Origin: a virus | Lineage: Duplodnaviria; Heunggongvirae; Uroviricota; Caudoviricetes | IMG/VR virus record: IMGVR_UViG_2558860274_000003 | Direction: 5' to 3' (one strand) | DNA: 15,475 nucleotides | In this document: positions 12,279 through 12,982 of the stretch, in pieces | Position numbering within the stretch: position 1 is the stretch's first letter | Layout of the letters: every line of letters begins with the position of its first letter | The notes under the pieces: model-generated | Database searches by the model: none | Told to the model about the DNA's origin: nothing | The model's input: the letters and a program-made list of their open reading frames with translations, nothing else | Translations under genes and position numbers: made by a program

Positions 12279-12337
12279 TGGTGGCCTTTATTTTTTGGCC
12301 GTAAATAATTTCATGCTTATTACAATCAAGGGGATAT

Positions 12338-12787
12338 ATGGAAGAACAAGCAAACAAGATTCTCGTAGAACTACTGCAAAAAGCCAGCAATGGAATAGAC
12401 GCGGCTGTTTCATTCAGCCAAGCGCAGATTCCTGATGTTGTTCATCAGTTGCTGCTATGGAATATGGTTGACAGTCTGATTAAAACATTAATAGCCATTC
12501 TAACAATCCCACTGGTTTTCTGGTTTATGAAGAAGCAGTGCCAAAGAGTTGAGACAGGTAAAATCGGTGATGAAGGATACTCATGGGAGAGGGGAAATCC
12601 CAAATACAGGCCGACAATGGTTTGGGATAGCAAAGGAGATATTAACCTTCTTATCATGCCATTGGTTGGAGTTTTGACTCTGTGGGGGATTTTTATTATT
12701 GGTGTAGTAACCAATATGACTTGGTTAAAAATTTGGCTGGCCCCAAAGCTTTACCTTATCGAATATGCAGCATCATTGGTTAAGTAA
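12338..12787 (+). CDS. Hypothetical membrane protein (149 aa), extra gene between ral and ea10
   Basis: ATG preceded by AAGGGGA. Two or three hydrophobic segments (LIKTLIAILTIPLVFWFM; LLIMPLVGVLTLWGIFIIGVVTNMTWL). Lambda has only about 180 bp between ral and ea10, so this is an insertion relative to lambda. Followed by a terminator. Confidence 0.6.
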   Translation: MEEQANKILVELLQKASNGIDAAVSFSQAQIPDVVHQLLLWNMVDSLIKTLIAILTIPLVFWFMKKQCQRVETGKIGDEGYSWERGNPKYRPTMVWDSKGDINLLIMPLVGVLTLWGIFIIGVVTNMTWLKIWLAPKLYLIEYAASLVK

Positions 12788-12791
12788 TTTC

Positions 12792-12818
12792 AGGCCGCAT
12801 AGTCGGCCTTTATTTTTG
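12792..12818 (+). terminator. Rho-independent terminator after the membrane-protein gene
   Basis: AGGCCG-CATAGT-CGGCCT hairpin followed by TTATTTTTGG. Confidence 0.6.
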
Positions 12819-12936
12819 GCATAAACAACAGAATAAACACAGCACTGTGTATTCATTCCAACGAGTGAATACACGGAGCAATGTCGCTCGTAACTAAACA
12901 GGAGCCGACTTGTTCTGATTATTGGAAATCTTCTTT

Positions 12937-12962
12937 GCCCTCTAATGTGAGGGCGATTTTTT
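12937..12962 (+). terminator. Second Rho-independent terminator upstream of ea10
   Basis: GCCCTC-TAATGT-GAGGGC hairpin followed by GATTTTTTAT. Confidence 0.55.
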
Positions 12963-12982
12963 ATCTGTGAGGATATGAACAG

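Follow-up and report, generated by a model that had tools for sequence, protein, structure and literature searches.

An accessory-gene cassette between ral and ea10 of a lambdoid phage, probably exchanged at short conserved start-region and terminator sequences

How did a gene of 149 codons come to lie between ral and ea10, two neighbouring genes of lambda, and what might it do there? The question arises from IMG/VR record IMGVR_UViG_2558860274_000003, a virus of the Caudoviricetes, of which we analyzed a stretch of 15,475 nucleotides (hereafter, the window). Its + strand is oriented like the early-left (pL) operon of lambda. A preliminary description of this DNA, made from the sequence, put the distance between the two genes at about 180 bp in lambda and 704 bp here. 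We measured 182 bp in lambda (from the end of ral at 978 to the start of ea10 at 1161, in the coordinates of our locus L001) and 704 bp in the window (12278 to 12983). The description was also right in placing within this gap a 149-aa ORF, which we find preceded by a Shine-Dalgarno sequence, and two terminators, both hairpins with T-runs. The terminator of ral comes in addition at the left edge, which its hairpin straddles. The one word of this observation that does not hold is "bounded", used there of the gene and a repeated start sequence, and the observation is in this sense partly confirmed. The features of the locus are given in Table 1.

Table 1. Features of the early-left locus in the window (positions are those of the window).
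Feature	Position	Strand	Basis or remark
cI-type repressor gene	8510-9211		
N	10922-11266		
sieB	11283..11864	-	Pfam SieB 2.5e-22; phrog_1301 8e-122; left neighbour of the orf28-ral unit
Start-region repeat (TIR), copy 1, AAGGTGATATATGGAAGAA	11998..12016	+	Shine-Dalgarno sequence and ATG GAA GAA of orf28; exact pattern match
orf28	12008..12094	+	28-codon acidic ORF, overlaps the start of ral; phrog_16060 7e-19
ral (restriction alleviation)	12078..12278	+	Pfam Ral 1.6e-48, full length
ral terminator, hairpin and T-tract	12267..12298	+	Terminator scan; hairpin 12267-12288, -13.9 kcal/mol
Terminator repeat (TERM), copy 1, GGCCTTTATTTTTTGG	12283-12298	+	Left end of the indel, inside the ral terminator
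Leader/spacer (C)CGTAAATAATTTCATGCTTATTACAATC, 28 nt	12299..12327	+	Upstream-class comparison; lambda alignment
Start-region repeat (TIR), copy 2	12328..12346	+	Shine-Dalgarno sequence and ATG GAA GAA of the 149-codon ORF; one mismatch to copy 1
149-aa ORF (Sf6 gene 34 / PHROG 3054 family)	12338..12787	+	
Terminator of the cassette, hairpin and T-tract	12792..12820	+	Hairpin 12792-12809, -9.7 kcal/mol
Terminator repeat (TERM), copy 2, GGCCTTTATTTTTGGC	12805-12820	+	Right end of the indel, inside the cassette's own terminator
Linker homologous to the Sf6 "bsq4 boundary sequence"	12842..12954	+	Sf6 annotation; coordinates approximate, mapped from Sf6
tL2A-type terminator just before ea10	12935..12964	+	Hairpin 12935-12956, -14.2 kcal/mol, z -5.5
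ea10, 5' part (DUF2528), first 71 codons	12983..13195	+	Pfam DUF2528 3.3e-21, profile positions 1-56 of 104

The Shine-Dalgarno sequence of the ORF, AAGGGG, stands 4 nt ahead of the ATG. Downstream of its terminator comes the bsq4-like linker, which stands out as invariant alignment columns in the comparison of the window with its relatives and holds a hairpin with a 14-bp stem (12845-12876, -23 kcal/mol, z -5.65). The third terminator is homologous to tL2A of lambda, a name that we take from the GenBank record of Shigella phage Sf6, just as orf28 is named after the lambda record. The gene ea10 is split in the window by an insertion sequence. Its 3' part restarts at about 14503-14510, and tblastn places a second Ea10 segment about 1.5 kb further on. 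A scan of positions 11800-13300 against Rfam gave a single sub-threshold match, to an S15 leader (E 0.42), which we discounted.

When the window is aligned with lambda, only one indel appears, of 522 bp, and both of its ends fall within a direct repeat that consists of the 3' arm of a terminator, its T-tract and the trailer (GGCCTTTATTTTTGGCATAAA). The core of this repeat is GGCCTTTATTTTT(T)GG(C), and the two copies (TERM) are 522 bp apart. When extended, the repeat covers 27 nt at 70% identity and is imperfect. Lambda has the first (ral) and the third (tL2A-type) of the three terminator hairpins of the window, and the 5' arm of its ral hairpin is fused to the trailer of the second TERM copy. 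The extra DNA thus delimited ends, on the left, 45 nt before the start-region repeat of the new gene and, on the right, 18 nt beyond the ORF. We rejected the insertion of a transposable element, since there are no inverted repeats at the ends of the indel and the "duplicated" sequence is a terminator that lambda already has once.

The start-region repeat (TIR) is a separate feature. A 19-nt near-exact repeat had been reported at the start regions of orf28 and of the new gene, and we find it with one mismatch; the agreement is 20/22 when the copies are extended, and the repeat was found in 0/200 dinucleotide-preserving shuffles. The sequence of copy 1 is also present in lambda, and copy 2 is a 19/19 match to the start of orf28 in phages Sf6, Gally and HK633. 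The consensus, ...CCACT(T)ATTT(A/G)AGGTGA(T/G)ATATGGAA, opens four unrelated ORF families, whose products begin with MEEQANKI (the 149-aa gene), MEEEFEEF (orf28), MEFHESAI and MTKSWSVP. Since the copies stand before orf28 and before the new ORF, they bracket orf28 and ral, and not the new gene as had been proposed. We found no equivalent of the TIR on the 3' side of the new gene in the window. The two pairs of repeats are interleaved, in the order TIR1 - orf28/ral - TERM1 - TIR2 - ORF149 - TERM2.

We deleted in silico the DNA between the copies of each repeat and compared the 160 nt over the new joint with all loci of our dataset (see below), without gaps. The product of deletion between the TERM copies matches lambda at 155/160 positions and phage 21 at 154/160. 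That of deletion between the TIR copies, which removes 330 bp, matches five IMG/VR contigs (L019, L024, L041, L047, L057) at 158/160 and the Salmonella phage SPN9CC at 157/160. Since these products reproduce natural arrangements, both repeats are mosaic joints. At the level of sequence comparison, this shows that an exchange between TERM copies would interconvert the arrangements of the window and of lambda, and that one between TIR copies would interconvert those of the window and of SPN9CC, in which the gene takes the place of orf28-ral. By this reckoning, the gene orders of lambda, the window and SPN9CC are one recombination step apart.

We think it probable that the 704-bp interval is a self-contained accessory-gene cassette, exchanged at short conserved sequences, expressed with the early-left operon and encoding a membrane protein. 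The cassette would be made of a short leader, a start region with the Shine-Dalgarno sequence and ATG-GAA-GAA, the 149-codon ORF and an intrinsic terminator of its own, and would be seated between the ral terminator and a conserved linker (bsq4 and the tL2a-type terminator). The exchanges would rely on stretches of 17-35 nt that the partners share, through homologous or homeologous recombination, and the Red- or Erf-type recombinases encoded in the same operon are candidate agents. Lambda Red is able to recombine sequences that are 22% diverged (PMC2327257).

This reading draws on a comparison of 88 loci with their flanks: 7 phage records, 80 IMG/VR contigs and the window. To the left of the gene one finds Ral (at 62-63 nt), N (down to 62 nt) or, on the opposite strand, SieB (144-150 nt), as well as a gene of the Gally gp31/HK633 gp43 type and Sf6 gp36. 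To the right there is Ea10, Sf6 gp33, cIII, or others. The upstream DNA falls into a few classes. A ral terminator and leader like those of the window are found in 35/88 loci. In 16/88, the gene replaces orf28-ral and is preceded by the intergenic DNA that separates sieB and orf28 in lambda, up to ...CCACTATTTAAGGTGATATATGGAAGAA; among these are the Salmonella phages SPN9CC and Oslo, together with at least 12 prophage contigs of IMG/VR. A related leader, GCAGCAAACCACTTATTTGAGGTGATATATG, stands behind varied DNA in 24/88 loci, and the gene lies directly after N, as in HF4s, in 5/88. The remaining leaders (8/88) are of other or unclassifiable types, including those of three late-region copies of the PhiR46_1 type. 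The identity shared around the start region reaches about 35 nt in many loci.

Downstream, the gene keeps its own terminator in nearly all close relatives, and the points at which the DNA changes are recurrent: after GGCATAAACAACAGAG; after AAACACTGCACTG, where the start region is sometimes found again; after GGAGCAAT, followed by cIII; and after the tL2a hairpin. The same few intergenic points are thus reused as junctions across the 88 loci. The content of the ral-ea10 slot is itself variable among lambdoid phages, and phage 2G7b has there a different cassette, of 65 codons. As judged from these sequences, the segment from N to cIII of lambdoid phages is shown to be built from such units, with short conserved separators. 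Outside this segment, a diverged copy of the gene (81% DNA identity) lies between Rz and Nu1 in PhiR46_1 and in two IMG/VR contigs. The whole ral-ORF-ea10 arrangement is present in 44/5,426 complete genomes of E. coli, and is 99.3% identical in a prophage of ETEC H10407; 130/5,426 contain 80% or more of the gene. The slot as such is carried by roughly 2,300 genomes of E. coli.

The preliminary description saw in the duplicated start sequence the joint at which a lambda-type phage acquired the gene. As an account of the window we find this unlikely, even if the repeat is real and non-random and, in SPN9CC, Oslo and several IMG/VR contigs, DNA of the sieB side switches to the gene exactly at the TIR. 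The copies of the TIR flank orf28-ral, so that recombination between them removes ral and does not place the gene beside it. Furthermore, both ends of the indel relative to lambda lie in the TERM repeat and not in the TIR. The gene also occurs without a repeated start sequence, a case that the description had itself named as contrary to its reading: in HF4s and in the prophage of E. coli NCCP15648, it comes directly after N and has a single copy of the TIR. The TIR is a genuine mosaic joint, as SPN9CC, Oslo and at least 12 IMG/VR contigs attest, but it is not the joint between lambda and the window. Nor does the comparison settle that the gene was "inserted". Since deletion between either pair of repeats yields a natural arrangement, a loss in lambda would explain the difference as well as a gain. 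The 28-nt leader is absent from lambda and from the SPN9CC-type arrangement, so the form found in the window could not be built from these two by a simple crossover. Overall, the earlier interpretation is partly supported.

What kind of gene does the cassette carry? The ORF is identical at 450/450 nt to a gene of E. coli NCCP15648, and its product is WP_000392424.1, which is also annotated in the prophage of ETEC H10407, on a different phage backbone. The protein matches phrog_3054 over its full length (E 2.8e-64; residues 1-149 against profile positions 1-137 of 137), and the 46 diverse family members that we searched all hit the same PHROG. This PHROG includes the protein of Sf6 gene 34 (NP_958210). 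A word-indexed search returned 516 clusters of homologues, every one annotated as hypothetical, and an exhaustive profile search returned 2,525 clusters at 50% identity, of which 1,183 have E <= 1e-10. The 149-aa protein has no match in Pfam or NCBIfam, and the 46 diverse members have scattered single matches in Pfam (E >= 7e-4), all to hydrophobic families, that we take as noise. The PDB gave no match to the single protein nor to a profile of 68 sequences, PADLOC gave 0 hits at E <= 1, and none of the 10 distant members checked for names had one. Our searches of the literature for phrog_3054, the protein accessions, gene 34/gp34 and bsq4 returned nothing on the gene. The experimental-evolution paper on Sf6 deals with the nin region, not with gene 34.

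The closest well-annotated counterpart is precisely Sf6 gene 34. It belongs to the same family over its full length, likewise follows ral, and has downstream the same terminator, bsq4 linker and tL2A. It differs in the central 90 residues, which hold both transmembrane segments and the loop: the two proteins agree at 40/41 positions in the N-terminal part, 10/90 in the middle and 19/21 in the C-terminal part. The window carries another allele of the variable core. The pattern extends to the rest of the family. The mean identity of the window protein to 99 distant members is 54% in the N-terminal part, 14% in the middle and 77% in the C-terminal part. The family has a conserved N-terminus (1-41) and C-terminus (129-149), with motifs that flank the hydrophobic segments (...GIDAAVxFSQAQIPDVVxQLLxW and WLKIWxAPKLYLIEYAASLVK, respectively), and a hypervariable transmembrane hairpin. 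Alleles of 149, 141 and 121 aa occur, and the one of 121 aa, in SPN9CC, almost lacks the loop.

Homologues were found in 181 phage records, many of them from apparently virulent phages, such as phi92-like Justusliebigvirus, N4-like Schitoviridae of Salmonella and Vibrio, Pseudomonas phage Lyrsu01 and a jumbo phage of Ralstonia, which has three copies. In the four genomes of virulent phages that we examined (phi92-like, N4-like, Vibrio and Pseudomonas phages), the gene lies among apparently early genes, for RNA polymerase, nucleotide metabolism, ATPases or small hypothetical proteins, and not among lysis genes. This context argues against a role specific to the lysogen, be it as a moron or in conversion, and against a holin.

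The distribution among virulent phages bears on when the gene is expressed. In the sense of Juhala and Hendrix, a moron is an additional gene, supplied with a promoter and a terminator of its own, that lies between genes adjacent in relatives. A classical moron would be transcribed while the prophage is repressed and would benefit the lysogen, for example by superinfection exclusion in the manner of sieB. The cassette is alike in that it places an extra gene with its own terminator between ral and ea10, adjacent in lambda, and the diverged copy in the late-region Rz-Nu1 slot of PhiR46_1 and of two IMG/VR contigs also speaks for this reading. It differs in that it lies inside the antiterminated early operon and in that we detected no promoter of its own. 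A consensus scan of positions 11800-13300, which may miss a weak or a non-sigma-70 promoter, found no sigma-70-like promoter on either strand, where shuffled sequences lead one to expect 3.8, and the same scan found nothing usable upstream of the PhiR46_1 copy. The hexamer TACAAT at 12321-12326 was considered as a -10 element and rejected, because the best -35 (TTGGCC) is 20 nt away, which is too far. The 59 nt from the stop of ral to the ATG are taken up by the terminator and the Shine-Dalgarno sequence. Finally, homologues are often carried by strictly virulent phages, in which there is no lysogen to profit from the gene. We regard a classical moron as quite unlikely.

The cassette in the window, with no detectable promoter of its own and a position between terminators, would be transcribed only within the N-antiterminated delayed-early transcript from pL. 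Judging from the sequence, the gene is thus likely to be expressed as a delayed-early gene in lytic growth, and would not be transcribed in the lysogen. Except for N, all pL genes of lambda are dispensable (PMC10695390).

The product had been described as a predicted membrane protein, and hydropathy agrees. Two 19-residue windows exceed 1.6 on the Kyte-Doolittle scale, at about residues 43-65 and 100-130, and both segments reach at least 1.6 in 106/107 homologues. The topology was derived from hydropathy and charge counts, with no trained predictor. The loop has a higher count of Lys and Arg than the termini in 93/107 homologues (the short-loop variants carry too few charges to be decisive), which favours a cytoplasmic loop and, by the positive-inside rule, weakly suggests that both termini are on the periplasmic side. 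The protein would thus cross the inner membrane twice, with the conserved N-terminal 41 and C-terminal 21 residues on the same side. These ends would contact something conserved, either a component of the host envelope or other copies of the protein, and the hypervariable hairpin would serve as an anchor or as a specificity element. AlphaFold models built on alignments of 68 and 114 sequences are of low confidence (pLDDT 64.7 and 68.2). The hairpin is their only confident part (76-87), and the conserved ends have the lowest values (53-60), which suggests intermolecular contacts at these ends. With these weak models, Foldseek retrieved only uncharacterised family members from BFVD, and nothing with E < 4 from the PDB.

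A small protein with two hydrophobic segments might also be a holin, pinholin, antiholin or another membrane permeabiliser involved in the timing of lysis, and in phages of the PhiR46_1 type the gene comes directly after Rz. We consider this improbable. In the window, as in at least 80 lambdoid loci and the virulent phages that we examined, the gene is among early or non-lysis genes, far from those of endolysin and spanins. Sf6 and the NCCP15648 prophage carry a holin of the lambda type as well, and neither the window protein nor the 46 diverse members match a holin family of Pfam. We know of no holin family marked by a long conserved N-terminal segment together with hypervariable transmembrane segments.

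The exchange of cassettes that we propose resembles a known process. Short conserved sequences at the junctions of lambdoid modules were described as boundary sequences by Clark et al. 2001 in HK620, and PMC3233612 presents them as one model of mosaicism. The record of Sf6 annotates bsq2 to bsq7, and bsq4 is the conserved linker between genes 34 and 33. The repeats of the window are likewise short, intergenic, located at junctions and common to phages with different flanking genes. They differ in that TIR and TERM lack such an annotation in the record of Sf6, and in that they overlap expression signals, the TIR including also the first three codons. In line with module exchange, the same short sequence is found at junctions with unrelated DNA on one side, and the predicted recombinants are found in nature. 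That the repeats are convergent expression signals, a good ribosome-binding site and a generic terminator with no relation to recombination, is very improbable: both do coincide with functional signals (Shine-Dalgarno sequence and ATG; terminator stem and T-tract), but the 19-nt identity includes the first three codons, is absent from the shuffles and reaches about 35 nt in many loci, each repeat has near-identical DNA between phages on one side and unrelated DNA on the other, and the sequences produced by the deletions agree with natural genomes at 155-158/160. Part of the sharing of start and terminator sequences could still be due to their selection as expression signals and not to a role in exchange. 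An accessory cassette traded at boundary sequences is a known kind of thing, and the finding is real and fairly ordinary. It provides a worked example of boundary-sequence exchange in which the substrates double as ribosome-binding site and start codon and as terminator, accounts for both repeats, and corrects which of them bounds the extra DNA.

As for the function of the gene, the context in virulent phages fits, as far as gene order can tell, a role in the membrane of the infected cell early in infection. The exclusion proteins Imm of T4, SieA of P22, SieB of lambda and P22, and gp15 of HK97 are alike in their small size, hydrophobic segments and dispensability, and the predicted early expression would be a further resemblance to T4 Imm. 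They differ in that no similarity of sequence or fold to the 149-aa protein is detectable: the neighbouring sieB matches the SieB family of Pfam, whereas the 149-aa ORF matches no family. The preliminary description had noted that small membrane proteins of the early left operon are frequently exclusion or host-modifying factors. Searches for homology to exclusion or defence systems gave no match in PADLOC or Pfam or to SieB, and no named homologue. Our guess, a tentative one, is that the protein may act early in the lytic cycle to protect or remodel the envelope of its host cell, for instance through superinfection exclusion at the step of DNA entry.

The larger point of interest is the PHROG 3054 family itself, which is widespread and has an unusual pattern of conserved ends and variable core. 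It comprises about 2,500 clusters and is found in phages, both temperate and virulent, of Escherichia, Salmonella, Klebsiella, Vibrio, Pseudomonas and Ralstonia. One speculative possibility, suggested by these sequences, is that the family represents an unrecognised and widespread class of early inner-membrane proteins of phages. Their conserved ends, predicted to lie on the same face of the membrane and possibly periplasmic, would engage a partner conserved across Gammaproteobacteria and beyond, and their hairpin would be swapped by intragenic recombination. Such proteins might block the entry of superinfecting DNA, or neutralise a membrane-based defence of the host, during lytic growth.

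The prophage adjoins, on the left of its immunity region, a stretch (window 1-7400) that holds an omptin gene, an AraC-family regulator, an IS3-family transposase and an IS66 element. The presence of these genes and insertion sequences beside the immunity region therefore shows that the prophage is a degraded remnant riddled with insertion sequences. Another IS3-family element splits ea10, is flanked on both sides by the 3-bp direct repeat GAC, and is followed by the rest of ea10 and then by cIII at position 14740. Its termini are TGAACCGCCCCGGG...CCCGGGGCGGTTCA, which we take to be similar to those of IS629/IS1203. 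The rexA/rexB position, flanked by the cI-type repressor and N, is occupied by two overlapping ORFs that match the PADLOC candidate system PDC-M24 (PDC-M24B, 6e-10; PDC-M24A, 5e-4) as well as the Pfam family DUF1828. They may constitute a prophage-encoded defence pair.

Features of the prophage and of the compared loci (L-numbers)
Feature	Locus	Position	Strand	Remark
Omptin gene	Window	1-954		
AraC-family regulator	Window	1204-1953	minus	
IS3-family transposase	Window	3714-4619	minus	
IS66 element	Window	about 5054-7387	minus	
Two overlapping ORFs	Window	9251-9808 and 9805-10557		at the rexA/rexB position
IS3-family insertion sequence	Window	13196-14507		1,312 bp, splits ea10
orfA of this element	Window	13250-13576		
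orfB of this element	Window	13777-14466		rve domain
Diverged family-gene copy	L008 (phage PhiR46_1)	2001-2450		also in L073, L074
103-bp ral deletion	L010	about 2860		also in L011, L016, L027, L033, L034, L036, L039, L075, L078, L082
Alternative 65-codon ORF	L094 (phage 2G7b)	719-916		ral-ea10 slot

Comparison of the 149-aa membrane-protein gene (window 12338-12787) with loci L004 and L006 revealed that it is mosaic within itself. Over the opening ~116 nt and the final ~70 nt it exceeds 90% DNA identity to Sf6 gene 34 and to the SPN9CC/HK633 alleles, and its central part cannot be aligned. Many E. coli genomes have a match confined to the gene ends, or to the first 116 nt (e.g. UTI89). In the record of phage HK633 (L007 1729-2404) two genes are annotated here: gp43 (1729-2118) runs through the ral-type terminator into the start of the family gene, and gp42 (2228-2404) corresponds to its C-terminal fragment only. 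By tblastn the family member is 121 aa long and lies at 2039-2401. The record therefore appears to be mis-annotated, the cause being that the stop codon upstream differs by 1 nt.

The copies of the PhiR46_1 type, which share 81% DNA identity and 76% protein identity with the window gene, lie in the late region, with Rz on one side and the terminase gene Nu1 on the other. Their leader and start (ATGCAAGAAGAA) differ from those of the window. Hence the family gene is not confined to the early-left operon. In the jumbo Ralstonia phage RsoM2USA (H124, MG752970.1) the protein is matched at three separate places, which suggests an expansion by paralogues.

Downstream of the gene, the bsq4 linker ahead of ea10 contains a hairpin (window 12845-12876) with a perfect 14-bp stem (-23 kcal/mol, z -5.65) and no T-run, invariant across lambda, Sf6, Gally and HF4s. 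It matched no family in the Rfam search, and may be an element that acts in the processing or stability of RNA. On the other side, just 5' of the cassette, several IMG/VR prophage contigs have a 103-bp internal deletion that leaves ral broken. Phage 2G7b carries an alternative ORF in the slot, whose left joint follows CAACAGAG and whose right joint precedes GCACTGTG. Alternative small cassettes can occupy the ral-ea10 slot, which is a hotspot for them.
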